Positions 2,809-28,861 of a stretch of 64,000 bases of DNA are shown here, in pieces. The DNA lies in the NCBI GenBank assembly GCA_905199855.1, contig CAJKHY010000004.1, forward strand, positions 2,449 through 66,448. The letters run 5' to 3'. The position numbers were made by a program, and so were the translations under genes. Below the pieces are notes generated by a model, which was not told where the DNA came from, did no database searches, and was given only the letters and a program-made list of their open reading frames with translations. The first letter of the stretch is position 1. Every line of letters starts with the position of its first letter. This DNA comes from an uncultured Clostridium sp. GTDB taxonomy: Bacteria; Bacillota_I; Bacilli_A; RF39; UBA660.

Positions 2809-4487
2809 GGTAAAGTGAAAAGTTAAATTCCACTTTCCCTATATTTGGCTGGAATTTAGTCTTACAGTAAATTCCACTTGAAATCTTGCAAGACTTAATT
2901 CCTTTTTATATAATAGTTATCCAAGGGTGTTTCTTAATGAAAGGATGGTAAAAATGAATAAGAAACAAACTTGTGATAACAAACACTTATCACTTGAGGA
3001 AAGAAAAATAATTCAAACAGGAATTGAAAACAGGTGTAATAAAGTTGATATTGCTAGAACATTAGGTAAAGATCCCACTACTATTGCTAAAGAGATTAGA
3101 AAGCATCGTGAATTTAAACCTAGAAACGTCAGATTATATCCTAATATTTGTATTCATCGAAAGGAATGTGGGACTTGCTTTAAAAAATGTGAACTTTATG
3201 AAGAACCAATTTGTAAAATGAGAGATAGATCCCCTGGCGCTTGTAATAAATGTCCTAAAATTACTAACTGTCATTTGGATAAATATTTTTATTATGCTAC
3301 TAAAGCTAATCAAGAATATTTAGATGAATTAGTTGATTCTAGAGTTGGTATTAATTTAACTGTTTCAGAAAAGAAACAAATTGGACAAATTATGGCCCCT
3401 TTATTAAAGCAAGGTCAATCAGTTTATCAAATTTTATCTTCACATAACGAAATTTCTCAATGTGAAAAGACTATTTATAATTATATTGAAATGGGAGTTT
3501 TCAAAGAAGAAGGTATTGACGTTTTCTCTTTAAAGGAACAAGTATCTAGAAAGCAATTTAAAAATAAATACAAAAAAAGAAAAAGCATTGCTAACTATGA
3601 TGGTAGAAAATATGAAGACTATCTTAAATTTAAAGAACAAAATCAAAATGTTATAACTATAGAAATGGACACCGTTTATAATGAGCAATCTGGTCCTTAT
3701 ATTCAAACTTTCTTATTTCAAAATACTATGTTTATGTTTGGAATATTGAAAAAAGATAAAACTTCATTATCAATGGCTGAATCCTTAGAATATTTAGAGT
3801 CAACTTTAGGTCACGATTTATATAGAAAATATTTTTCTTTAATTCTTACTGATAGAGGTGTTGAATTCCAAAAACATAACTTATTCGAATTTAATATTGA
3901 AACCGGTGAGTTTAGAACAAATATTTTTTATTGTGATCCAATGCAGTCAAGTCAAAAAGCAAGAGTTGAAAACAACCACAACTATGTCAGAGATATAATT
4001 ACTAATGAATTAAGTCTTAAAAATATTACACAAGAAGATTTAAATTTAGTATTCTCACATATTAATTCTACTCCAAGAGAATCATTAAATGGAAAGACTC
4101 CGTATGAAATAATGGAATTCCTATATGGAAAAGAACTATTGGATTTATTAGATATAAAACAAATAAAAAGAGATGAGGTAGTATTAAAACCTTATCTCAT
4201 AAAACATATTTATAAGAAATAATCACCACAAAATTTCTTATATTTATGAATAGAAACACCCTTAAATTGAACTTTAACTATCAAAACGGAATTTAGTCTT
4301 ACAGAAAAATTTATTTGACCTAATTTCGTCTTTTCGTCGTGGTTAAATTTCCATTCATTTATGTATTTTACACTACTTTTTTATAAAAATCAACTACCTA
4401 TATGACGATAAAAAGCCCATAAAATGGACTTTTCTTCTACAAATTTAAATCGGCTTAGGAAAGTGGAATTTAACTTTTCACTTTACC
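2809..4487 (+). mobile_element. IS30-family insertion sequence, copy A (1679 bp), perfect 30-bp terminal inverted repeats GGTAAAGTGAAAAGTTAAATTCCACTTTCC
   Basis: Identical over its full length to 24013..25691. Left end 2809..2838 is the reverse complement of right end 4458..4487. Encodes a single DDE transposase. Confidence 0.85.
2927..4222 (+). CDS. IS30-family DDE transposase (431 aa; probable true start MNKKQ at 2954 behind RBS AAAGGATGG)
   Basis: N-terminal HTH with IAKEIRKHRE (IS30 ISREIxRN-like). DDE region: MDTV, LTDRGVEF, FYCDPMQSSQKARVENNHNYVRDII (IS30 FCDPxSPWQRGxNENxNGLIR signature). C-terminal STPRESLNGKTPYEI (IS30 NxRPRKxLxFKTPxE). Confidence 0.85.
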   Translation: MFLNERMVKMNKKQTCDNKHLSLEERKIIQTGIENRCNKVDIARTLGKDPTTIAKEIRKHREFKPRNVRLYPNICIHRKECGTCFKKCELYEEPICKMRDRSPGACNKCPKITNCHLDKYFYYATKANQEYLDELVDSRVGINLTVSEKKQIGQIMAPLLKQGQSVYQILSSHNEISQCEKTIYNYIEMGVFKEEGIDVFSLKEQVSRKQFKNKYKKRKSIANYDGRKYEDYLKFKEQNQNVITIEMDTVYNEQSGPYIQTFLFQNTMFMFGILKKDKTSLSMAESLEYLESTLGHDLYRKYFSLILTDRGVEFQKHNLFEFNIETGEFRTNIFYCDPMQSSQKARVENNHNYVRDIITNELSLKNITQEDLNLVFSHINSTPRESLNGKTPYEIMEFLYGKELLDLLDIKQIKRDEVVLKPYLIKHIYKK

Positions 4488-7917: not shown

Positions 7918-8026
7918 TGGGAAGGTGAAATTTTTTTGTGAAAACGTAAAATTTTTGAAGAATGTGTCAAGTGAATTAGAACGGCGTAGCAAAGGCAGAT
8001 AGATGGGTGATAATTTTTGTAAAAAA

Positions 8027-8052
8027 AAGACCGATACTTTCGGTTATTTGGT
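8027..8052 (-). terminator. Terminator downstream of VanZ-like gene
   Basis: Minus strand ACCGA-aagta-TCGGT followed by CTTTTTTTT. Confidence 0.5.
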
Positions 8053-8061
8053 ATCAGTTTC

Positions 8062-9156
8062 TTATTCTGTTTTTATGGTGCTTTGAAATTCTACTTTGGT
8101 TAGTTTGTCATAGAATACTTTTTGGTTGAATAGGATTTTGAATGTTGTTACAATGTATGTGATGAAGAGGATAATAAATATGACTAGGTAAAGGACGAGG
8201 CTTATTTGAGTATTTAAATTTAGTGTCTTATTTAGTTTTATGCTTCCTTCAATTATTAGAATGGGTACTTTTACATAGTATAAATAAATAATGATGGTTC
8301 TTATAAGTGATGATAGAAATGGGTACTTTGGAAATGTGTGTTTGATATTTAGAAATTTGCCCCCTAGAGTTTGGTTGTTCCAAATGTAAGGTAATACTAC
8401 GTAATAGATTGGAATGGTTATATATTTAATCCATGAATAGTTGATGATAAAGATAGTGATGGTATGAAATGTTAGGTAAATGGTGAGGTCTAGGAAGAAT
8501 AAGGTGATTCTTCTTAAGCCTGATACTTTTTGTCCAACGAGGAGAGATTTTTTGTCTATTTCATCTCTTGATGGTAGGATTTTTTCTACTAAAAGGGCTA
8601 GATAGTAACCGATGATTCCTCCTAGGGTGTTCATGATAAGGTCGTCAACATCAAATAAACGATAGGCTCTTGGGTAGATGAAATATAATCCTGTAACTTG
8701 CGTTATTTCAAAAAATAATGATAAGAGGAATGAGAAGGTTGCTACTTTTTTGAAGCTATATTTGTAATAATATTTTAGGTAAATGCCAAAGGGGATGGTC
8801 ATTAGTATATTAAATATTACGGTATAGAAACTTGGATGTAATATGGCTTTTAGGTGGGTGTTTGGTTTGTTTATGATAAATGGCGATTCTTTTATGAGGT
8901 TGTTGATGAAGTTGAATGGGATGAGGTTTGGTTTTAATGGTTTCATATTTAGTAATTGTTCTTTGGTTGGAAGTGGGAGAATGACTAGGAAGTAAATGGT
9001 TATTAGGTATAGAATAAATGAATATATGATTAGGGTTCTTAATTTGTTTATAGATCCGTATTTGTGGTATTGTTTTAGGATGAATGGGATGGTGAATAAA
9101 AATGAGATGAGAGGAAAAATTAAGATTGCTGTTTTTATAGCTTCAGTGTATGTCAT
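8062..9156 (-). CDS. VanZ-family polytopic membrane protein with C-terminal multi-TM extension
   Basis: Motif RLFDVDDLIMNTLGGIIGYYLA (VanZ D..D..N..G...G). Start taken at MTYTEAIK (9156) behind RBS AAAGGAGGAAAAAC. The longer ORF to 9252 overlaps the PAP2 gene. Confidence 0.55.
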   Translation of the reverse strand: MTYTEAIKTAILIFPLISFLFTIPFILKQYHKYGSINKLRTLIIYSFILYLITIYFLVILPLPTKEQLLNMKPLKPNLIPFNFINNLIKESPFIINKPNTHLKAILHPSFYTVIFNILMTIPFGIYLKYYYKYSFKKVATFSFLLSLFFEITQVTGLYFIYPRAYRLFDVDDLIMNTLGGIIGYYLALLVEKILPSRDEIDKKSLLVGQKVSGLRRITLFFLDLTIYLTFHTITIFIINYSWIKYITIPIYYVVLPYIWNNQTLGGKFLNIKHTFPKYPFLSSLIRTIIIYLYYVKVPILIIEGSIKLNKTLNLNTQISLVLYLVIFIILFITYIVTTFKILFNQKVFYDKLTKVEFQSTIKTE

Positions 9157-9827
9157 TGTTTTTCCTCCTTTTTTTCTTTGTTCATTATAATTTTGTTTGC
9201 AAAATTTATATATATTATTAGATAGGATATTGATACTAAAAAGCCTGCACAAACATCACTTGTATAATGAACGCCTAAATAGATTCTACTGATGCCAATC
9301 ATTACTATTAATAATGATAATATGCTGATTAGAGCTGTTTTTAAATATTTGTTTTTGATATTATTATAGATTAGATAGATTATATATCCGTAAAAAGCCA
9401 TGCTTATCATGGAATGACCAGATGGAAAACTATATCCGGTTTCATTGATAATTTTAAATTCTATTGGGCGTGGCCTTTGTAAAATGAATTTTAACATTTG
9501 GTTTAGTATGGTAATGATAATTAGGTTTGCCCCGATTTGTAAGCCTGTTTTTTTGTCTTTTATTGCTATAAGTAGGATTAGTGTTAAGGGTAATAAGCAG
9601 GTGGCACTTCCAAACCAAGTTATGATTTTAATAATTGGTGTTAATGAATCATTGATTAAATATGTTGATATGAATTTATAACCAATGATGTCGCCTTTCA
9701 TTATTTCGTGGTTAAATACATCTTCTGCTAAGGCGAGGAATAATACTAAACAGATAAAGCAAAGTATCCACTTATAGTTGTTGATAATCGTTTTTTTTAT
9801 TTTTTTATACATTGTTTCACTTCCCAA
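9153..9827 (-). CDS. PAP2-family phosphatase (phosphatidic acid / undecaprenyl-PP phosphatase-like)
   Basis: PAP2 motifs KxxxxxxRP (QRPRP), PSGHS, SRIYLGVHYTSDV; several TM segments. Confidence 0.7.
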   Translation of the reverse strand: MGSETMYKKIKKTIINNYKWILCFICLVLFLALAEDVFNHEIMKGDIIGYKFISTYLINDSLTPIIKIITWFGSATCLLPLTLILLIAIKDKKTGLQIGANLIIITILNQMLKFILQRPRPIEFKIINETGYSFPSGHSMISMAFYGYIIYLIYNNIKNKYLKTALISILSLLIVMIGISRIYLGVHYTSDVCAGFLVSISYLIIYINFANKIIMNKEKKEEKQ

Positions 9828-10004
9828 ACTATCAGTATTGAATATTGTTTTTTATTTTCTTTATAGTTATATTATACAATATAAAAATGATATTCGGTTG
9901 AAAAAATTGTGAATATATATCTTTTTACATTGAAATTTTATGAAATAGAAAAAAGAACTGAATAGAAAATTATTTCTACTTAGTTTCTTTTTGGGTAAAT
10001 GGAT

Positions 10005-11208: not shown

Positions 11209-12225
11209 TTATTTTATGGTTATGGCGTATTTGGTATTTAAATCATCCTCGTAAGCGATGTAATAAGTTCCATTTTTGACATATTTGCTTTTGCTCACTA
11301 GTAAGTAATCACCGTCTTTGTGAATTTGCCACTTTTGGACTAGGCTTGTTTGATTGCTTGTATATAGATTATAATTATTTAGAATTTTATCGTTATCATA
11401 AGCAATGAATTTATAATTAGTTGTCCCTTGCTTTTCCATTGTGTATTTGTATGTTGAAGCGGGAATAGTTACGTTTACTGATTTTTTAGCGTTAGCACTT
11501 CCACATTTGATATTTGCAACAATGGTTACCTTTTTATCAGTTGTGTCTCTTGTAACTGTGCTGAAGTCAGCATCGGTCCATGTAATTTGACATTTACCAC
11601 TTACGGCAGTTGATTTTAATGTTTGATTGGCTTGTACAACAGCAAAGTCTTTTACTTCTTCTCTTGCTACAGATAAATATGTTTGGTCATCAGTTAGGGC
11701 AACTTCCCAACTTGCTACAAGTTTGATATCTTTGGTTACTGGTGTATTAAAATCATAATCAATACCATCTAACTTCCACCCTGTAAATACGTGTCCATTT
11801 TTGGTAGGAGTTTTTGGAATAGTCGCAGTTTTACCACTTTCAATGGTTTGATAGTCTACGGTGCTTCCTCCGTTTGAGTCAAATGATACAACATAACTAA
11901 ATATGTAATCGCTGTTAATTTCCCATTTGGCATAGATTATGGTATCACTTTTTATTTTTTTACTAAAATCATATTTAGTATTGTCAAAGTACCAGCCAAG
12001 AAATTTGTATCCTTCTCTTCTTGGTTCTGCAGGTTCTATGACAGAATTTCCTGTTCTTACCTTTCTTATTTCAATTATAGTGTTGTCTTCATTCATAAAT
12101 GTTACTGTATATTCAGTGGTGTATATTTTTATTATGAAAAATGCTATAAGGAATACTAATACAATGCCTAAACACAAAACAATACTTTTTACTATTTTTC
12201 CTTTTGTTTCTAAAGATACATTCAT
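11209..12225 (-). CDS. Signal-anchored surface protein with Listeria-Bacteroides-type repeats (YKFLGWY, GHVFTGWKLDG) and a C-terminal beta domain
   Basis: N-terminal TM (IVLCLGIVLVFLIAFFII) and two Gly-Trp repeats typical of PF09479-like repeats. Confidence 0.5.
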   Translation of the reverse strand: MNVSLETKGKIVKSIVLCLGIVLVFLIAFFIIKIYTTEYTVTFMNEDNTIIEIRKVRTGNSVIEPAEPRREGYKFLGWYFDNTKYDFSKKIKSDTIIYAKWEINSDYIFSYVVSFDSNGGSTVDYQTIESGKTATIPKTPTKNGHVFTGWKLDGIDYDFNTPVTKDIKLVASWEVALTDDQTYLSVAREEVKDFAVVQANQTLKSTAVSGKCQITWTDADFSTVTRDTTDKKVTIVANIKCGSANAKKSVNVTIPASTYKYTMEKQGTTNYKFIAYDNDKILNNYNLYTSNQTSLVQKWQIHKDGDYLLVSKSKYVKNGTYYIAYEDDLNTKYAITIK

Positions 12226-12326
12226 TTTATTATCACACCTTTATTTTTATCTAAGATAATTTTATCATATTAAAAAAATATTGTCTATATAAAAAGAGAA
12301 AAACTTTGTTTTCTCTTTGAGTAACT

Positions 12327-12887
12327 TTAATAAGATAAGAATGTCTTTATTGCAACCGTAGCCAAAAATGGTTTGTCCATCAATTCGTTTTGTACTTCAC
12401 CTGTTTCATGAAGCCATACTATTAATTCATAGTTATCAGCATCAGTAGCATTTAATACTAAACTAGTAGTATATAAATCAAGAGTTGTACTATCACCAAT
12501 ATTTGCGAAATCACCATTTGCGACACTTGTGTCATCTTTTAATAATTGCCACTTGAAACTGCTATTTTTTAGATTTTCATCAATGGTAATATCTTGCAGA
12601 AGGACTGTATATTTAGCAGTCATACTCATGCTTGAATTAGCTTTTACAGTAAATATAGTCTTATCTGCTTTTGTTGGAACTTCTGCTTCGGTTAAGGGAA
12701 TACCTGTTGTTGTACTTATATATTTACTTGTTGCGAATTCTACAACAATTTTATCACTAGTAGGGGTTTTTATATCAAAACTAGTAGATGTTGCTGTGGC
12801 ATACCAAGCATAACTAAAACCAAGTAATAAAGAGAACATTACCATTGTTGTTAAACATAAGACCAATAATAATTTTTTAAAGTTCAT
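12327..12887 (-). CDS. Small secreted protein with TasA/CalY-like SipW-cognate-type signal peptide (LLLGFSYAWYATATS)
   Basis: N-terminus MNFKKLLLVLCLTTMVMFSLLLGFSYAWYA, then a 150-aa Thr/Ser-rich beta-type domain. Confidence 0.45.
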   Translation of the reverse strand: MNFKKLLLVLCLTTMVMFSLLLGFSYAWYATATSTSFDIKTPTSDKIVVEFATSKYISTTTGIPLTEAEVPTKADKTIFTVKANSSMSMTAKYTVLLQDITIDENLKNSSFKWQLLKDDTSVANGDFANIGDSTTLDLYTTSLVLNATDADNYELIVWLHETGEVQNELMDKPFLATVAIKTFLSY

Positions 12888-12972: not shown

Positions 12973-13695
12973 CTAAATTTTGTTATTTTTTTTATTTTTT
13001 AATTTTATAACTCTATAGATTATGTATCCAAGGAGCGATAAACCTATTATATATAAGATATATTTAATAATTTTAAGATAATCTATACCTGTTTTAAATA
13101 TTCTATTTTTATCAAACTCTAAATTGATTCTTTTAGAGTAGTCATGGAAATCATATGTCCATGTATATGTATTTGTTTTGTTATCTACTTGATCAGCATT
13201 ATTTTTTGTAACTACGTATGGTACTTTTATTTTAACTTCTAATTTTGTTACAATAGGTTCTTCTTCCATACCATCAACAAATAACCAAAAATTATCTAAG
13301 TTGTTATCACTTGATATGGTAATTAAATTTTTTTCTTTTGCTATTTTTAAGCCATCAACATATATCTTTTTTATATATTTGGATTGGGCAAAATCTTCTA
13401 AATTTTTATATGTTTTATTACTAGATATGGCCATGTTACCTGAACTAGAATATTTTTTAATATTATTTAAATCCTCATCTTGGTGTAATTCGGAATATGT
13501 TTCTTTTAGGGTTTCATACATGGTATCTACTGTGTATTCATTTCCTATTTTAAAACGATCATCACCTAGTATTTCCATGTTTTCAACAACTGTTAGGTCT
13601 TTGTTAATTGTTACATCGTAATTAATAGTACATCCTGTTAAAAGAAATAAACTTAGTATTAAAGTTATTGTTTTTTTATTCATAATAATTATCAC
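12973..13695 (-). CDS. Bitopic lipoprotein, paralog 1 (lipobox LTGC; C-terminal TM plus basic tail)
   Basis: LTGCTINYDVTIN lipobox; C-terminus ILYIIGLSLLGYIIYRVIKLKNKKNNKI; shares NADxV..TYTW motif with paralogs. Confidence 0.5.
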   Translation of the reverse strand: MIIIMNKKTITLILSLFLLTGCTINYDVTINKDLTVVENMEILGDDRFKIGNEYTVDTMYETLKETYSELHQDEDLNNIKKYSSSGNMAISSNKTYKNLEDFAQSKYIKKIYVDGLKIAKEKNLITISSDNNLDNFWLFVDGMEEEPIVTKLEVKIKVPYVVTKNNADQVDNKTNTYTWTYDFHDYSKRINLEFDKNRIFKTGIDYLKIIKYILYIIGLSLLGYIIYRVIKLKNKKNNKI

Positions 13696-13700
13696 CTACC

Positions 13701-14465
13701 TTATACATTATCATTACTTCTCATTTTCTTTAAGATAAAGATCCCTATAATTATTATAACGCTAAATACTATGCCCAAAAAAATATATTTGTTTACTGAA
13801 TTATTAGATTTTTGAGTGGTGTTATTTGTTTGATTATTTTCTTTGTTACTTTCATTTTCTTTATTGTTATCAATTACTATGTTATTACTATCATTTGTAT
13901 CATATGAAATGGTTAAAACTTTATCTGCGTTATCTTTATTGTATATCCAAGTGTATGTATCTCCTTCTACTTTATCAGCGTTGCTACTTGTTACTTTAAA
14001 AGGTAATACTATGTTTATGTTCAGTTGATTTACTGGTGCTTTTATATAGTTTACATCTTTTAAAATGTTTTGTAACTCAGTTTTAGGAGTTGCCTTGATG
14101 ATAACTAGTTTTTTATTTTGATTTATTTTAATCTCTCCAAAAAAGTCTTTTATGGCTTTTGATTCACGGTATTTGTAATAATCAGTATAGACTGTCGATG
14201 CTGAAAAAATGTTGTCAATATAGGTTGGACAATTATCTTCAAAGCATTCTTCTGGATCAGAATCGTAGTAAATAGAATAATAATTTCCATAATCATCTTT
14301 TATTGTATTTAATGTTTCATCAGTAATTTCAATATTTTCATTGATTAAGGTTATTTTTTCTGTTATTTCATTATTATCGATAATTAAATTATAATTAATG
14401 GTGCATCCTGTTAACAAAAATAAACTTAATATTAAAAATATAATTTTTTTATGATTTAAAATCAT
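13701..14465 (-). CDS. Bitopic lipoprotein, paralog 2
   Basis: LTGCTINYNLIID lipobox; VTSSNADKVEGDTYTWIYN; C-terminal TM FLGIVFSVIIIIGIFILKK. Confidence 0.5.
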   Translation of the reverse strand: MILNHKKIIFLILSLFLLTGCTINYNLIIDNNEITEKITLINENIEITDETLNTIKDDYGNYYSIYYDSDPEECFEDNCPTYIDNIFSASTVYTDYYKYRESKAIKDFFGEIKINQNKKLVIIKATPKTELQNILKDVNYIKAPVNQLNINIVLPFKVTSSNADKVEGDTYTWIYNKDNADKVLTISYDTNDSNNIVIDNNKENESNKENNQTNNTTQKSNNSVNKYIFLGIVFSVIIIIGIFILKKMRSNDNV

Positions 14466-14478
14466 ATTCTCACCTCAA

Positions 14479-15645
14479 CTATCTTGTGGTAGTATTTTTA
14501 CATTGTAATTTTTGAATAGCATCTAATATTTTATTACAGTTTTTCCTGTCTTTATTTTGACAAGCGCCTCCATAAGAAGATAAAAAATAGTTAGTTAAAT
14601 CAACATATTTATTGTTTCTTTTGACAATATAGACAAACTTGCTGTTTCCAATGGTTCCTATCATTGTACCCATTTCTATATTACTACCTATTTGATATGT
14701 TGTGTATACATTTTCTAAGTTGCAATAACTATGAAATTCGCCATGATTAGTAAATATAGTTACACCGTTTCTGCAGTTAGTGGTTGTTTCATTTACTACT
14801 TTGCCTCCTTCTAAGGCATAAACGTTAACTATGTCATTGATATCTTTTTTATCCAATTCAATACCTTGATTAAATTTATTATTAATTGAACCTACGCAAT
14901 TACCAATGTTAGGCTGATATCTCCTTCCTGTGGCATCTTTTAATAGTGATGAAACTGTAATTATATTTGTTAATGGTTTGTTTGGTGCACTTTCGGTTAC
15001 ACCTCCACAAGCGTATGATGTCTTGTCAGTGAAATATGGGGTAATATATATAGGTTTTCCTGCGTAGTTGTTTATTTGAAAATGTAAGTGTGTTCCTGTT
15101 GAACAACCTGTATTTCCAATTTTACCTAGTAATTGTCCCTGTTTTACTATATCTCCTACTTTGACTGTTTTGCTTGACATATGCATATAGTGTACTTGAT
15201 ATCCAGCAAATCTTGAATCAGTAACTTCCAGTGTAACGGAAACACCACGACTACTTGGGCATGTTACTGGTGAACATATTAAACTTTCTCCTGGCGCACA
15301 ATTTTTAGTATTATTGGTTGTGGCAATTATTTTACCATCAAATACAGCATAGATATTACCATCGCCAGTGCCTTTTGTTAAGTCCATACCTTTATGATAT
15401 ACTCCGCCTCCACGATTTCCACATACTACATCGGTAACACGATAATTTTTGATTGGGTCAACCATGTGGCACATAACATTGTAACCACTTTCACAACAGT
15501 TAGATACTCCGGGACAATATCCTTCTTCATTATCATCCATTTTAATTAAAGATTCGGTTCTAATAGAAAAAGATTTGTTGTTATTAAAGCTATAGTAAAA
15601 ACTAAATGAACATATAACAATTAATAAATATAAAGTTTTTTTCAA
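14479..15645 (-). CDS. Secreted Cys-rich M23 (LytM-type) metallopeptidase with a second, degenerate M23-like domain
   Basis: YHKGMD (HxxxD) and GTHLHFQI (HxH) in domain 1; residues about 230-388 repeat the fold without the His ligands. Confidence 0.7.
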   Translation of the reverse strand: MKKTLYLLIVICSFSFYYSFNNNKSFSIRTESLIKMDDNEEGYCPGVSNCCESGYNVMCHMVDPIKNYRVTDVVCGNRGGGVYHKGMDLTKGTGDGNIYAVFDGKIIATTNNTKNCAPGESLICSPVTCPSSRGVSVTLEVTDSRFAGYQVHYMHMSSKTVKVGDIVKQGQLLGKIGNTGCSTGTHLHFQINNYAGKPIYITPYFTDKTSYACGGVTESAPNKPLTNIITVSSLLKDATGRRYQPNIGNCVGSINNKFNQGIELDKKDINDIVNVYALEGGKVVNETTTNCRNGVTIFTNHGEFHSYCNLENVYTTYQIGSNIEMGTMIGTIGNSKFVYIVKRNNKYVDLTNYFLSSYGGACQNKDRKNCNKILDAIQKLQCKNTTTR

Positions 15646-15657
15646 TTTTAATCACCT

Positions 15658-16509
15658 CTATATTCTATTGGTTTTTTCTATTTTCTTTTTAATAAAGAGT
15701 ACTATTACCAATATAATTGTTAGTACTATTCCTATAAGAATTATTGGTACTATTTTGTTGTTTTTTACAAATTCAGTCCCATTTACTTTACCAAATGATA
15801 CTTTTTCAACAATATTTCCTGTTATTTTTTCAATAACATTTGGCTCACTTTTTTCGTTGTATGTATATTTATTTTTTTTAGAATATGTTAGTTTTAACTC
15901 AAAATTGGATGCATTGTTTTCATTTACAACCCAATAATGTGTGTTGGTTTTTTTGTCTATTTTGGTGGCATTACTATCAATAATATCATAATATGACTGT
16001 ATTTTTATAACTATGTTATCTACATCAAAAGTATATTTATATGAAGTCGTTAATTTTTTTACATTATCATAGTTAAATTTATTGCCATAAATGGTGTAGG
16101 TGGCACTGTCATTTGTTATTTTAGATGTTTCAAAATAATAATTAAAGAATAATGATTTTGAAAAATCTTGAATGTTATCTATATTCTTTTTTAATTTATA
16201 TGTTGCTGATTGTCCATTATTGTTTTTAAAGTTTGCTTTATTTGCTACAATAATTTGGGGTTCTATATCATTTTCACCCGACAAATAAAACTCTTTTATA
16301 TTATTAACTGCTGTACTTATTGGTTCACCATATTTTGACAATACTTCGTTTGTTTCAGTAAAATATATTGTTTCGTCTAAAGTGTTATTGTTATTTATTA
16401 TAAGTTCATAATCAACAGAACATCCAGTTAACAAGCATAGTGTTAATATTATTAATATTTTTTTCACTATATCACCTCTTAATATGGTCTTACAAAACCA
16501 GCAATCCAT
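15658..16509 (-). CDS. Bitopic lipoprotein, paralog 3
   Basis: LTGCSVDYELIIN lipobox (probable start VKKILIIL); C-terminal TM IVPIILIGIVLTIILVIVLFIKKK. Confidence 0.5.
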   Translation of the reverse strand: MDCWFCKTILRGDIVKKILIILTLCLLTGCSVDYELIINNNNTLDETIYFTETNEVLSKYGEPISTAVNNIKEFYLSGENDIEPQIIVANKANFKNNNGQSATYKLKKNIDNIQDFSKSLFFNYYFETSKITNDSATYTIYGNKFNYDNVKKLTTSYKYTFDVDNIVIKIQSYYDIIDSNATKIDKKTNTHYWVVNENNASNFELKLTYSKKNKYTYNEKSEPNVIEKITGNIVEKVSFGKVNGTEFVKNNKIVPIILIGIVLTIILVIVLFIKKKIEKTNRI

Positions 16510-18536
16510 GCAGAACCTTTTGCATTTGGAGCATACCTATTGTCGTATGCATCATAAATGGTAGTGGTATAAGCTGGTTCGCCTTCAGTAGTAATATGAG
16601 TTATCTCAATAGCACCATCAGGATGAACAGCAGTAACAACACCTACGTGCCCAATACAACCAAATCTATTACTTCTTCCATGACTTAATTTACAATTACC
16701 ATTACTGTCTAATCGGCTAGTAAAAAATAAATCTCCTGGCATTACACTGTTTACATCAACACAATTATCTCTTTTTCCTCTAAACATTTCGGCGGCAGAT
16801 GCACCATAATTAACACCACCCAATTTTAAGGCTGCACTGGCAAATTTATTGCAATCCCAACCACCATAATGATATGTCTTTTGCATTAGGGATGCATTTG
16901 TTTTAATGCTAGCAATTTTATCCCCAATTGATTTATTATAGCTACTACTATCTACATAATTGGTGCAAAAATCTGTATCTACTTCTTCTGGGTTTGGTTT
17001 TGGCTGTGGTTCATAATCTATTTCTTCATAATAATTATTATTGTAATATCTTGATTTTCTTCTTCCGGCACAGCTTAAATCACGATAACTTATTATATCT
17101 ACATCTTTATCACTACAAACATTGTATATCATTGTAGCATTTTCATAATATGAATACAAACTATATGTTTCAAATACTATTTGGCTAATATCTCGTCTTT
17201 TTTGTTTAACATCAGTTTTATCTACGTATTGATGGTAATATGATTCAATAAATCTATCACAGTAACATTTGTCTTTTCCTGTTTCTTCATCTTTTCCACA
17301 AAACATTTCAACATCAGCATCAGTTGGTAAATTACCTAATAAATATTCATTATATCCTTCACAGTCTAATTCATAACTTAAGTCATCAAGCCCAATGTCA
17401 CCAGAACCAGAAAAAGGCTTAGAGTATTTGACAGCATTTGTTTCTTTACAACCATATATACCTTGGGCATCAGAAGAATCAGTTAATTCATTATCAAAGC
17501 AATATAAATCATCATCATAAGAAGATAAATCATATGTTTCCATACAAGATTTACATGTAGAATCTTTATTAGGATCGCAATCCCAATAGTAACCTTCAGT
17601 TTGAATAACCCTATTATAATACTCAGTTGGTCCCAAAACCATACCATAATTCCCTACACGACTAATGCATTGTCCTTCCATTCCAACATCAACAATATTA
17701 ATTTCTATATGTCTAGTTGTATCAGTATAGGTTCCCACATATTCTGGATGTATTGTTAAATATGTCTCAATTCTTTTAATTTGATATTTTGACAATACCT
17801 CTACTCCTTCAATTGCTTTCCTCAATTTAGACAAATGATATTTTGAATCTATAGATTGTTTTGCATCATATAAAAAATTATTTTCTACAAAATCACGATA
17901 TGATCCAGTATGAAGGTCATATCCTTTTCCTTCTTCCACAAAATAACTATACTCTTTTTCAAATTCGTCATTTCTTGTCATTTCAGACTGATATCTACTA
18001 TTATATAATGTTGCTGTAATTAAAGTAGTATCTATTTGTACACCATACATTTTAGTATTAGCATTATCTGGATATAAAGGAGCATGTTGTGTTCTTTTTG
18101 AACGAAATATTTTTCTAAAAAAACTTCCTATTGATTGCCAAATAGACCCACCATTTTTATCTTCTTTATAAAATTCATAGGCATCATATAAAGCATCAAA
18201 ATATTTATCATTATTTTCTTTTAATTTTTCATCTTTACTATCAAAATATTGAGTGAAATTTAAAAATTCGTCTCTTTCTATTATCTTTCTTTCATAATCA
18301 GTTTCACCTTTAAGGCGCTCTGCTCCTGCACGTTCTACAGAGTTTAAGGTGGCAAGAGAGGCAAATATTTTTAGAACAACATAAATAAATACAGCAATAA
18401 AAAGAACGAAGGCAAAGCCAATAGCAATGATGCTTATTATTTTTGCTGTCTTTAGATTTTTTAGCATTTTTATAATGCCATTTATTTTTGAATTATTTTC
18501 TTTGTTGTTATTATTTATAAAATTTAAAAACTTCAT
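16479..18536 (-). CDS. Membrane-anchored cell-wall hydrolase: N-terminal TM, large Cys/Tyr-rich central region, C-terminal NlpC/P60 peptidase domain (T4SS VirB1/CwlT/TcpG-type role)
   Basis: C-terminal GGWDCNKFASAALKLGG (Cys nucleophile) ... CIGHVGVV (His) ... H, the NlpC/P60 arrangement; TM at residues 30-55. Confidence 0.6.
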   Translation of the reverse strand: MKFLNFINNNNKENNSKINGIIKMLKNLKTAKIISIIAIGFAFVLFIAVFIYVVLKIFASLATLNSVERAGAERLKGETDYERKIIERDEFLNFTQYFDSKDEKLKENNDKYFDALYDAYEFYKEDKNGGSIWQSIGSFFRKIFRSKRTQHAPLYPDNANTKMYGVQIDTTLITATLYNSRYQSEMTRNDEFEKEYSYFVEEGKGYDLHTGSYRDFVENNFLYDAKQSIDSKYHLSKLRKAIEGVEVLSKYQIKRIETYLTIHPEYVGTYTDTTRHIEINIVDVGMEGQCISRVGNYGMVLGPTEYYNRVIQTEGYYWDCDPNKDSTCKSCMETYDLSSYDDDLYCFDNELTDSSDAQGIYGCKETNAVKYSKPFSGSGDIGLDDLSYELDCEGYNEYLLGNLPTDADVEMFCGKDEETGKDKCYCDRFIESYYHQYVDKTDVKQKRRDISQIVFETYSLYSYYENATMIYNVCSDKDVDIISYRDLSCAGRRKSRYYNNNYYEEIDYEPQPKPNPEEVDTDFCTNYVDSSSYNKSIGDKIASIKTNASLMQKTYHYGGWDCNKFASAALKLGGVNYGASAAEMFRGKRDNCVDVNSVMPGDLFFTSRLDSNGNCKLSHGRSNRFGCIGHVGVVTAVHPDGAIEITHITTEGEPAYTTTIYDAYDNRYAPNAKGSAWIAGFVRPY

Positions 18537-27490: not shown

Positions 27491-28861
27491 TTAGTACTCA
27501 CAATTTCCTGGAGTTCTAGGATATGGGATGACGTCTCTTATGTTTTCAACACCTGTTAGGTAGATTAGTAATCTTTCAAAGCCCATACCAAAGCCTGAGT
27601 GAACGCATCCACCAAATTTTCTTAGGTTCATATACCATTCCATACCTTCTTTTTGCATGTTTAATTCTTCCATACGTTTTGCTAGTTTATCATAGTTTTC
27701 TTCTCTTTGAGAGCCACCCATTAATTCTCCAGCACCAGGTACTTCTAGGTCTACTGCGGCAACAGTTTTGCCGTCTTCATTTTGTTTCATATAAAATGCT
27801 TTGATATCTTTAGGCCAATTTTTGATAAATACAGGCCCATTAAAGTATTCTGTGATATATTTTTCATGTTCTTTGGCAATATCTTCTCCATACTCTGGTT
27901 CAAATTCCCATTTGATGTTAGCTTTTTTTAGGATAGAGATTACTTCTTCGTGGTCAATTCTTGTAAATTTAGAATTAATCAATTTAGTTAGTTTGTCTAT
28001 TAATCCTTTTTCAACATACGTGTCTAAGAATTTCATTTCATATGAAGCATGCTCTAGAACATATGATGTAACGTATTTTAACATTTCTTCCATGATATCC
28101 ATGTCTTTTTCTAAATCACAAAAGGCAATTTCTGGTTCGATCATCCAAAATTCGGCAGCGTGAGTTTTGGTATTTGAGTTTTCGGCTCTAAATGTTGGAC
28201 CAAATGTGTAAATCTTTTTATATGCTAGAGCGAATGTTTCTCCTTGTAGTTGACCCGATACTGTTAATGATGTTTTTTTGCCAAAGAAATCTTTGCTATA
28301 ATCTACTTTGCCTAAAGATGCTACTTTGTCTAAATCAAGGGTTGTTACTTGAAACATTTCCCCTGCTCCTTCACAGTCTGCTCCCGTTATAATTGGGGCA
28401 TGAAAGTAAACATATCCTCTTTCTTGGAAGTATTTATGTATTGCATAAGCCGCTACGCTTCTTACTCTAAATACAGCTTGAAATAGGTTTGTTCTTGGTC
28501 TTAGGTAAGCTTGATCTCTTAAAAATTCTCTTGTATGTCTTTTTGGTTGAATAGGATAATCATCTGGACAATCTCCTAATAAAGTAATGTTTGTAAGTTG
28601 TAGTTCAAAAGCTTGTCCTTCTTTTGGTGAGGTATTAACGATTCCTTCAACTTTAATTGCTGAACCTATTTTAAATTTTGTTATTTTATCAAAATTAGAT
28701 AAATTATTGTCATAAACAACTTGCAAGGTATTAATGATTGTACCATCATACATATCAATAAAGCAAATATTAGCTTGTTTGCGGTGGTTCTTTATCCAAC
28801 CACATATTTCTACTTTTTTTCCTAAATAATCTTTTTCGTATAAATCTTTAATATCTAACAT
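27491..28861 (-). CDS. asnS: Asparagine--tRNA ligase
   Basis: N-terminal OB-fold, class II motifs (FRAE, GGSQREE, GFGMGFERL); about 456 aa from MLDIKDLYEK. Confidence 0.85.
   Translation of the reverse strand: MLDIKDLYEKDYLGKKVEICGWIKNHRKQANICFIDMYDGTIINTLQVVYDNNLSNFDKITKFKIGSAIKVEGIVNTSPKEGQAFELQLTNITLLGDCPDDYPIQPKRHTREFLRDQAYLRPRTNLFQAVFRVRSVAAYAIHKYFQERGYVYFHAPIITGADCEGAGEMFQVTTLDLDKVASLGKVDYSKDFFGKKTSLTVSGQLQGETFALAYKKIYTFGPTFRAENSNTKTHAAEFWMIEPEIAFCDLEKDMDIMEEMLKYVTSYVLEHASYEMKFLDTYVEKGLIDKLTKLINSKFTRIDHEEVISILKKANIKWEFEPEYGEDIAKEHEKYITEYFNGPVFIKNWPKDIKAFYMKQNEDGKTVAAVDLEVPGAGELMGGSQREENYDKLAKRMEELNMQKEGMEWYMNLRKFGGCVHSGFGMGFERLLIYLTGVENIRDVIPYPRTPGNCEY

Follow-up and report, generated by a model that had tools for sequence, protein, structure and literature searches.

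The mycobacterial lipoprotein LppM carries a signal peptide with a lipobox (ATGC) and a C-terminal transmembrane (TM) domain (PMC5217060). It has a new fold, an 11-strand pseudo-barrel closed by a helix, and binds phosphatidylinositol mannosides (PIM), a hydrophobic cavity for acylated PIM being known for LppM from the literature (PMC6151718). The type IV secretion systems (T4SSs) of Gram-positive bacteria are poorly understood beyond the cytoplasmic membrane, and according to a review both wall-spanning and signalling components are missing, monoderm T4SSs being still without an identified relay equivalent to VirB10 (PMC12857230). The integrative and conjugative elements (ICEs) of Mycoplasma do not encode VirB1-like hydrolases (PMC12857230), and their CDS14 is a surface lipoprotein that is essential for conjugation (PMC6030558). 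Here we analyze three lipoproteins, named LipA, LipB, and LipC, encoded in a T4SS-like gene cluster of an uncultured Clostridium sp. (contig CAJKHY010000004.1, positions 2,449 to 66,448); the whole stretch of 64,000 nucleotides (nt) is called the window. These proteins are predicted to share the fold and the double anchor of LppM, and in the loci examined the genes of their family stand behind genes for peptidoglycan (PG) hydrolases or behind another copy. With a little more than even confidence, we propose that they are cognate membrane-tethered partners or regulators of T4SS wall hydrolases.

Three Lipoproteins with Two Predicted Membrane Anchors

The three genes lie on the minus strand and encode predicted LppM-fold lipoproteins of 236 amino acids (aa) for LipA (12973-13683, ATG at 13683), 254 aa for LipB (13701-14465, ATG at 14465), and 269 aa for LipC (15658-16467, GTG at 16467). 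The start sites were re-set by the N-termini of homologues and by Shine-Dalgarno sites (GAGGTGA or AGGTGAT). Of the sizes given in an earlier sequence-only reading of this DNA (240, 254, and 283 aa), the second was retained, and those of LipA and LipC were corrected to 236 and 269 aa. The 283-aa version of LipC would run into the upstream hydrolase gene. Pairwise BLASTP gave identities of 24-28% (E = 3e-10, 5e-7, and 1e-4) and a MAFFT alignment gave 30-35%; as had been proposed, the three proteins are, judged by their sequences, true but old paralogues. In neighbor-joining trees, which carry no bootstrap support and whose deep branching is suggestive only (including the grouping of the lipoproteins that follow CHAP hydrolases), LipA, LipB, and LipC form three deep clades. 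In the divergent locus L005 each of the clades has its own orthologue (31-46% identity), in agreement with the earlier view that the duplication is not random. In the same trees the duplicate lipoproteins of loci L017, L030, and L036 pair within their own locus, and the two copies of L039 are split between clades.

Each of the three proteins has an LLTGC lipobox preceded by a short basic N-region and a hydrophobic core, a beta-rich domain of ~180 residues, a C-terminal hydrophobic helix, and a Lys/Asn-rich tail. The lipobox cysteine is Cys18 in the corrected LipA, and the tail after its C-terminal TM reads KLKNKKNNKI. LipB has a disordered N/K-rich linker of ~30 residues ahead of the TM (low pLDDT at 195-222), and in the MAFFT alignment LipC has an insertion of ~33 columns relative to LipA between the domain and the TM.

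A profile made from the three proteins recovered 78 clusters (90% identity), all of them lacking Pfam annotation. A 42-sequence profile (A2), searched with no word index, matched 3,177 representative clusters (50% identity) at E<=1e-3 and 2,026 at E<=1e-10, a count that is, on these scores, far above chance; among the 150 matches listed, most were 215-270 residues long and aligned end to end. No Pfam or NCBIfam match above threshold was obtained for the family, and in an NCBIfam scan of 102 members the matches were driven by the signal peptide or the TM only. A set of 217 full-length members was examined, and in essentially all of them the lipobox closes with Gly-Cys and a TM is present at the C-terminus. 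Past this TM comes a tail of 10 residues (median) whose net charge, +3 in the median, is positive in 98% of the members; by the positive-inside rule this argues that the tail is cytoplasmic. Of the 217 proteins, 130 end in N-x-[ILVMF]. The near-invariant positions of the family are a Tyr at Cys+4, an Ile at Cys+8, a Glu at Cys+16, and a hairpin motif, N-A-D..V....(N)TY.W. The lipobox, C-terminal TM, and basic tail that had been read from the three window proteins are therefore general to the family, and the same is true of their C-proximal NAD..TY.W motif. A sortase signal at the C-terminus was considered and rejected, an LPXTG-like motif being found in one of the 217 members and in none of the three window proteins.

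A Predicted LppM-Like Fold

AlphaFold2 models were built from family alignments for LipA (pLDDT 82.4, pTM 0.73) and LipB (pLDDT 81.8, pTM 0.69) and searched with Foldseek against the PDB, the top 50 matches being viewed. The best match of both models was the nuclear magnetic resonance structure of LppM from M. tuberculosis (2NC8), with E-values of 3e-7 and 2.3e-6, a probability of 1.00, and TM-scores of 0.58 and 0.56 normalized to LppM. The next matches were generic beta-sandwich domains (OST ribophorin/Ost1 and M1 aminopeptidase N-domains), and a search against viral structures gave nothing meaningful. In both models the first strand begins at the lipobox Cys, and in that of LipA the last strand passes almost directly into the TM helix, so the ectodomain is predicted to lie flat on the outer side of the membrane.

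At the sequence level LipA matches the Pfam LppM family (PF21946) over profile positions 3-139 of 153 with 18.4 bits (E 0.0028; gathering score 27), and no such match was found for LipB or LipC. LppM is the only domain family that recurs among the members scanned (4 of 42; 26 of 102 at E<=0.05, best E 1.6e-5). A word-indexed search with the 102-sequence profile did not find PF21946-annotated proteins bridging to LppM. On the models, we place the lipoproteins as a probable distant, sub-threshold, and unnamed branch of the LppM superfamily. The topology with an anchor at either end, which the sequence-only reading had called unusual, is indeed real and unusual but not new, since LppM has the same combination of lipobox and C-terminal TM (PMC5217060) and the arrangement is thus a known hallmark of this fold.

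The same reading had suggested a VirB8- or TcpC-like identity, and this was not upheld: the models match LppM best, and the anchoring is reversed relative to VirB8. No structure of VirB8, TraM, PrgL, OrfG, or TcpC was present in the Foldseek PDB top 50 of the LipA or LipB model, and no match to Pfam VirB8 or TcpC was observed among the window proteins or in the scans of 42 and 102 family members.

Lipoprotein Genes Stand behind Wall Hydrolase Genes

Related loci were collected from GTDB genomes (mostly metagenome-assembled genomes (MAGs) of "uncultured Bacilli"), from metagenomes, and by exact-protein look-ups, and represent ~30 distinct contexts; they were recovered with a 15-sequence sub-alignment, so the sample is biased to LipA-like members. 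In these ~30 loci the immediate upstream neighbor of every family member is, with no exception, the gene of a PG hydrolase or another copy of the lipoprotein gene. The hydrolases are of the NlpC/P60-CHAP, M23, SpoIID, and Peptidase_C39_2 types and combinations of these. The usual module reads VirB6-like, VirB3-like, VirB4-N, VirB4-C, hydrolase, lipoprotein, VirD4, and the VirD4 proteins match Pfam T4SS-DNA_transf with E-values of 1e-55 to 1e-60. VirD4 is directly 3' of the lipoprotein gene in nearly all other lineages (L008, L016-L018, and L031-L041 compared).

Where a locus has two hydrolase genes (the window, L005, L017, and L039), one lipoprotein gene stands behind each. In the window the LipC gene is directly 3' of the NlpC/P60-CHAP hydrolase gene and the LipB gene directly 3' of the M23 gene (14479-15645), which sits between LipC and LipB, so the interleaving with an M23 peptidase was read correctly. 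LipA is the last of the three copies, at the site taken by VirD4 in other lineages. The order NlpC, LipC, M23, LipB, LipA is also that of L005. In L017 a SpoIID hydrolase is followed by a lipoprotein, and a second gene of 423 aa with a near-identical start, a putative hydrolase gene, is followed by another; in L039 a CHAP hydrolase precedes a 242-aa copy and a SpoIID+C39_2 hydrolase a 244-aa copy. Tandem lipoprotein copies behind a single hydrolase were found in L030 and L036. Two loci have no VirB4 within 8-9 kb: L040, with a CHAP hydrolase (weak Pfam match) and a lipoprotein, and L019, with the order hydrolase, lipoprotein, hydrolase, where the flanking genes have no Pfam match and are CHAP-like by C-terminal motif only. 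Since these pairs stand without VirB4, the tightest linkage of the lipoproteins is to the hydrolase and not to the ATPases. The literature searches made here did not yield any description of this coupling.

The stand-alone hydrolases (L019 6773-8272 and 9001-10341; L040 8057-8986) have an N-terminal membrane segment weakly like that of pilin-like proteins and of the 267-aa protein encoded by the first gene of the window cluster. These sequences hint that they may be hydrolases fused to a pilin-like anchor.

The association with secretion genes is nevertheless robust across the ~30 loci, most examined members being in T4SS clusters, and the secretion-type character claimed for the window cluster was borne out by T4SS-type VirB4 genes in the same cluster. 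A match to an unrelated family without a T4SS link had been named beforehand as an outcome that would speak against a role in such a system; LppM is formally a match of that kind, yet the T4SS association of the present subfamily stands.

The position of the lipoprotein gene raises the possibility that the protein is a structural T4SS subunit that takes the place of VirB8 as a scaffold of the extracytoplasmic channel, the adjacency to the hydrolase being a matter of operon order only. The VirB8-like genes prgL of pCF10 and orf13 of Tn916 likewise stand behind a hydrolase gene, which counts for this explanation. So do the place of the lipoprotein between hydrolase and VirD4 in nearly all T4SS loci, the fact that no VirB8-like gene was recognized in the window cluster, and the lack of an identified VirB10-like relay in monoderm systems (PMC12857230). 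We nonetheless consider it unlikely: the fold is LppM-like and not NTF2-like, the lipid anchor and the TM are placed in the reverse of the VirB8 order, the pair also occurs away from any VirB4 gene (L019, L040), and copy number tracks hydrolase genes and not channels.

Hydrolases and Lipoproteins Vary Together within the Species

Among strains of the species VirB4C is 99-100% identical, with a ratio of nonsynonymous to synonymous substitutions (dN/dS) of about 0.01, and the flanking PBP5 and MurC are 95-98% identical to the window proteins. The 685-aa NlpC/P60-CHAP hydrolase is 69-81% and the M23 protein 63-89% identical to the window versions. LipC is the most variable lipoprotein copy (30-74%), LipB has 48-75% identity, and LipA, at 90-92%, is the conserved one. 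The window's own haplotype is present, at 98-100%, on one contig (L024). Residues 1 to ~500 of the 685-aa hydrolase are mostly 63-96% identical per 30-residue window among strains, and its catalytic domain, the last ~190 residues, is 13-30% identical between haplotypes; in all three alleles of this domain the papain-like Cys and His are retained.

The variable blocks span the junctions between hydrolase and lipoprotein genes. In haplotype L004 the block runs from the hydrolase catalytic domain into the N-terminal half of LipC, and in L022 it takes in the whole of LipC, M23 at both of its ends, and LipB over its first two-thirds; the C-terminal half of M23 varies together with the N-terminal part of LipB. 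The synonymous divergence dS is 0.45-1.2 in the variable blocks versus ~0.2 in VirB4, which argues for import of divergent alleles by recombination and not for point substitution alone. For all genes compared dN/dS was <1. This pattern places the variable parts outside the cell, under diversifying or allele-sorting pressure, and fits hydrolase domains and lipoproteins being swapped as matched sets. A hypervariable hydrolase-lipoprotein block in an otherwise invariant operon is a clear population-genetic signal that needs an explanation.

One such explanation is that the hydrolases are effectors directed against other bacteria or the wall of the target cell and that the lipoproteins are the cognate immunity proteins guarding the wall of the producer from the outer side of its membrane. 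The 685-aa hydrolase has the layout of a polymorphic toxin, with a conserved N-terminal region of ~500 residues, swapped catalytic alleles (13-30%) that keep Cys and His, and a next gene downstream that co-varies; there is one lipoprotein per hydrolase gene, and hydrolase-lipoprotein cassettes stand alone. An immunity family is expected to be specific for one toxin family, whereas here NlpC/CHAP, M23, SpoIID, and C39_2 enzymes are all partnered by one lipoprotein family, which is atypical for specific immunity proteins. The hydrolases also occupy the VirB1 position with an N-terminal membrane anchor, like components of the machine, LipA is conserved and is without a hydrolase, and no delivery domain or secretion signal was identified. 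Taken together, this makes immunity an unlikely role for the lipoproteins.

Hypervariable surface proteins could also set the specificity of mating pairs or of self and non-self, the lipoproteins then acting in recognition or exclusion. TraT of the F plasmid would be an analogue. The hypervariability of LipB and LipC in a species with an invariant VirB4 is as expected under this explanation, and so is the precedent of CDS14, the surface lipoprotein of the related Mycoplasma ICE that is essential for conjugation (PMC6030558). It is, however, highly improbable, for a domain tied to the membrane at both ends under a PG wall is in a poor position to recognize another cell, LipA is conserved, as are the motifs common to the family, and no similarity to any NCBIfam Mycoplasma ICE lipoprotein model was observed.

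A Proposed Model for Control of Wall Cutting

In the reading that we prefer, in which the lipoproteins are cognate partners of the wall hydrolases, LipA, LipB, and LipC would be exported and lipidated at the lipobox Cys, predicted to be directly before the first beta-strand. The C-terminal TM helix would be the second anchor, with the basic tail of ~10 residues in the cytoplasm, and the beta-rich ectodomain would be held flat on the outer side of the membrane, beneath the wall. The family would be a dedicated genetic partner of membrane-anchored PG hydrolases, and its commonest partner would be the VirB1-position hydrolase of a T4SS of uncultured gut Bacilli that is distantly related to the Mycoplasma ICE systems. 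In the lineage of the window the hydrolase function may have been split over two genes, each with its own lipoprotein (NlpC/CHAP with LipC and M23 with LipB), LipA being the conserved last copy. The variable part of the ectodomain would bind the catalytic domain of the cognate hydrolase, and the lipoprotein would position or restrain this domain where membrane and wall meet, limiting wall cutting to the assembly site of the secretion channel. The conserved Tyr (Cys+4), Glu (Cys+16), NAD..TY.W hairpin, and C-terminal N-x-[ILV] tail may serve a function common to all members, possibly the binding of lipid, as for LppM, or else docking to the membrane core of the T4SS. The resulting hypothesis, control of wall cutting at the secretion channel, is directly testable.

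The model builds on the paralogy, predicted topology, and fold, on the adjacency to hydrolases, on a copy number that tracks hydrolase genes, on the stand-alone pairs, and on the co-variation. From these we infer both the physical binding of lipoprotein to hydrolase and regulation or inhibition as its putative effect. Several observations weigh against the model. LipA is neither hypervariable nor paired with a hydrolase, so at least one of the copies may have another task. Four unrelated hydrolase families are trailed by this one lipoprotein family, as would be expected of a generic scaffold more than of a specific inhibitor. Vertical inheritance of one operon could account for much of the conserved gene order, and physical linkage in recombination blocks alone could give the same co-variation. 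The family HMMER profiles (A1, A2, A4) searched against PDB sequences matched neither 2NC8 nor any other meaningful entry, so the link to LppM rests on the fold and on sub-threshold Pfam matches. The partner model overlaps with the immunity and VirB8-substitute explanations, which share its site of action and differ in binding target and purpose.

The T4SS-Like Cluster and Its Surroundings

The cluster runs on the minus strand from 23891 to ~11209 in the order 267-aa protein, VirB6-like, VirB3-like, VirB4-N, VirB4-C, 685-aa hydrolase, LipC, M23, LipB, LipA, 186-aa protein, and 338-aa protein. The first gene (23088-23891) encodes a 267-aa protein with a weak match to MMCAP2_0566 and pilin-like conjugal-transfer families. 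Two allele classes of it exist in the species (L002, L003), with only 10-33% identity over residues 31-150 and 83-100% in the C-terminal membrane part. The 609-aa polytopic membrane protein (21242-23071) is a VirB6-like candidate, homologues encoded at other loci having matches to TrbL_4 or to the Mbov_0396 family of ICE membrane proteins. It is followed by a small VirB3-like membrane protein of 113 aa (20882-21223) at the position of the N-terminus of the fused Mycoplasma VirB4 profile, a separate open reading frame (ORF) for the 192-aa VirB4 N-terminal, TraC-like domain (20350-20928), and the 594-aa VirB4 C-terminal P-loop ATPase (18569-20353). The membrane-anchored hydrolase of 685 aa (16479-18536) is at the VirB1 position and has a C-terminal NlpC/P60-CHAP papain-like domain; the M23 protein is a lysostaphin-type endopeptidase of 388 aa with an N-terminal signal or anchor. 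Downstream of LipA, two co-oriented genes (11209-12887) encode a 186-aa secreted or anchored protein and a 338-aa Flg_new-repeat protein. They stand at the VirD4 site of other lineages and are 90-95% conserved in the species, and it is uncertain whether their products are part of the system. No VirD4 coupling protein was found by tblastn in the 64-kb window.

The intergenic gaps from VirB4-C through LipA are 5-32 nt, with strong Shine-Dalgarno sites, and no minus-strand terminator was predicted across the cluster, which is consistent with a single operon. A promoter scan was uninformative (98 sites versus 89 expected), and nothing was found in an Rfam scan of the window. The VirB4 region (18569-21223) consists of three overlapping ORFs in different frames, for the VirB3-like part (~110 aa), the TraC-like N-domain (~190 aa), and the P-loop domain (~595 aa). 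This three-part VirB3/VirB4 split is kept in every related locus (L006-L018, L030-L041) and in a Mycoplasmatota plasmid (L042), and so represents an ancestral arrangement and not a pseudogene. The use of translation table 4 was rejected as its cause, the ORFs lying in different frames and the N-domain ORF overlapping the adjoining ORF by 4 nt.

The cluster is flanked by housekeeping genes, with MurC and a 470-aa ORF at one end and PBP5, PAP2, VanZ, and BipA at the opposite end, and the same gene order and flanks were found in human-gut metagenome contigs of the same species. In other lineages long contigs (L018, L038, L039, L014, L016) have the T4SS module amid LeuS, FtsW, DivIVA, SerS, RNase R, SmpB, FtsY/Ffh, and HU. 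No relaxase or integrase was seen among the Pfam-annotated genes within ~9-10 kb on several long contigs. The housekeeping flanks and the lack of these mobility genes suggest a chromosomal, possibly vertically inherited system rather than an ICE. A further explanation follows this line, in which the cluster is a non-conjugative chromosomal T4SS of gut Bacilli with reduced genomes, vertically kept, that delivers or deploys polymorphic wall hydrolases on neighbors, with the lipoproteins as a new, doubly anchored class of immunity proteins. The absence of a recognized relaxase or integrase, the housekeeping flanks, the absence of VirD4 from the window, and the allelic catalytic domains with co-varying lipoproteins are all compatible with it. 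Its purpose could be contact-dependent antagonism or, by analogy, an epibiotic lifestyle as proposed for Patescibacteria. We regard this scenario as decidedly unlikely, and if it were true the cluster would be the first case of a Gram-positive T4SS linked to a hydrolase effector-immunity arsenal.

Two identical (100%) insertion sequences of 1,679 bp lie in direct orientation on the plus strand (2809-4487 and 24013-25691). Each has ~30-bp terminal inverted repeats and encodes a 431-aa transposase with an HTH_38 domain, from which we infer that they are IS30-like. The pair brackets 19.5 kb with BipA, VanZ, PAP2, PBP5, and the whole T4SS-like cluster in a composite transposon-like layout, and related strains (L001-L004) have no insertion sequence gene at the upstream site. 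MurC (25708-27501, minus strand) is one ORF of 597 aa in the window and two ORFs of ~455 and 161 aa in L001-L004, a discrepancy that a frameshift or, in one of the sources, a faulty assembly could explain. A local guanine-cytosine skew spike of +0.355 was seen at 8001-10000 (VanZ/PAP2), the neighboring bins being at ~-0.05 to -0.2. In L017, from a MAG titled Clostridium sp., two type IV prepilin-like N-termini (KGFTLIELL...) are encoded directly upstream of the T4SS module (815-2069).

Comparison with Known Systems

One of the closest known systems is the conjugation module of the Mycoplasma ICEs. The best match of the window VirB4 was NCBIfam Mbov_0397 (E 7e-104, 348 bits, cut-off 590), and the two ORFs upstream of VirB4-C cover the N-terminal part of the same profile. 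At related loci the VirB6-like proteins have matches to the Mbov_0396 family (E 1.6e-11) and small proteins encoded upstream have weak ones to the pilin-like Mbov_0395 family; a neighbor weakly resembles MMCAP2_0566. All of these matches are below the NCBIfam cut-offs, and the Mycoplasma VirB4 profile is a single protein, whereas the window has three ORFs. The Mycoplasma module likewise needs a lipoprotein, CDS14 (PMC6030558). The NCBIfam Mycoplasma ICE lipoprotein models gave no match to the present family. Since hydrolase and lipoprotein occur together in relatives that have PG-synthesis genes, a wall-related job is suggested for the lipoprotein, an argument that is partly one of negative evidence. 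Among 72,556 plasmids, tblastn with three family members did not find any homologue, and VirB4C reached no more than 29% identity to a plasmid VirB4. The plasmid nearest to it, L042 from a Mycoplasmatota bacterium, has at the same site a different lipoprotein, without a C-terminal TM and with no match to the family.

In the transfer operons of Gram-positive T4SSs VirB8-like subunits are encoded beside a VirB1-like hydrolase. Like the window lipoproteins, the VirB8-like proteins PrgL, TraM, Orf13, and TcpC are small, bitopic, and extracytoplasmic, and are candidates for a wall-spanning or scaffold part. They have an N-terminal TM and NTF2-like domains, whereas the window lipoproteins have an N-terminal lipid anchor, a C-terminal TM, and a predicted LppM-like fold.

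Pairs of a PG-hydrolase effector and a lipoprotein immunity protein are known as X-Tfe/X-Tfi in Xanthomonas and as Tae/Tai in type VI secretion systems. They resemble the window genes in having a hydrolase gene followed by a small lipoprotein gene, polymorphic catalytic domains, and a co-varying downstream gene. Immunity proteins of the X-Tfi and Tai type are soluble in the periplasm or have a single anchor, and any one of them is specific to a single enzyme family, whereas the lipoprotein family described here accompanies four, and its hydrolase is a membrane-anchored component of the operon.

LppM itself (Rv2171; PDB 2NC8; PF21946) shares with the window lipoproteins the lipobox signal peptide, a beta-rich pseudo-barrel of ~160 residues, and the C-terminal TM, at a sequence identity of just 12-13%. 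It is actinobacterial and linked to PIM binding and to interaction with macrophages, whereas the window proteins are from low-GC Bacilli and are tied to PG hydrolases and T4SSs; a link of LppM to a hydrolase or a T4SS is not mentioned in PMC5217060 or PMC6151718. The orphan LppM fold thus gains its first functional context outside mycobacteria, which might in turn inform LppM biology, for example through a partner in envelope remodeling. A large family of at least 3,000 clusters at 50% identity can now be described by its fold (LppM), its fixed topology, and its strict genetic partner, the wall hydrolase of the secretion cluster. What was known is the LppM fold with its double-anchor topology, and what is new is an unnamed, hydrolase-coupled branch of it that is found mostly within T4SS clusters.

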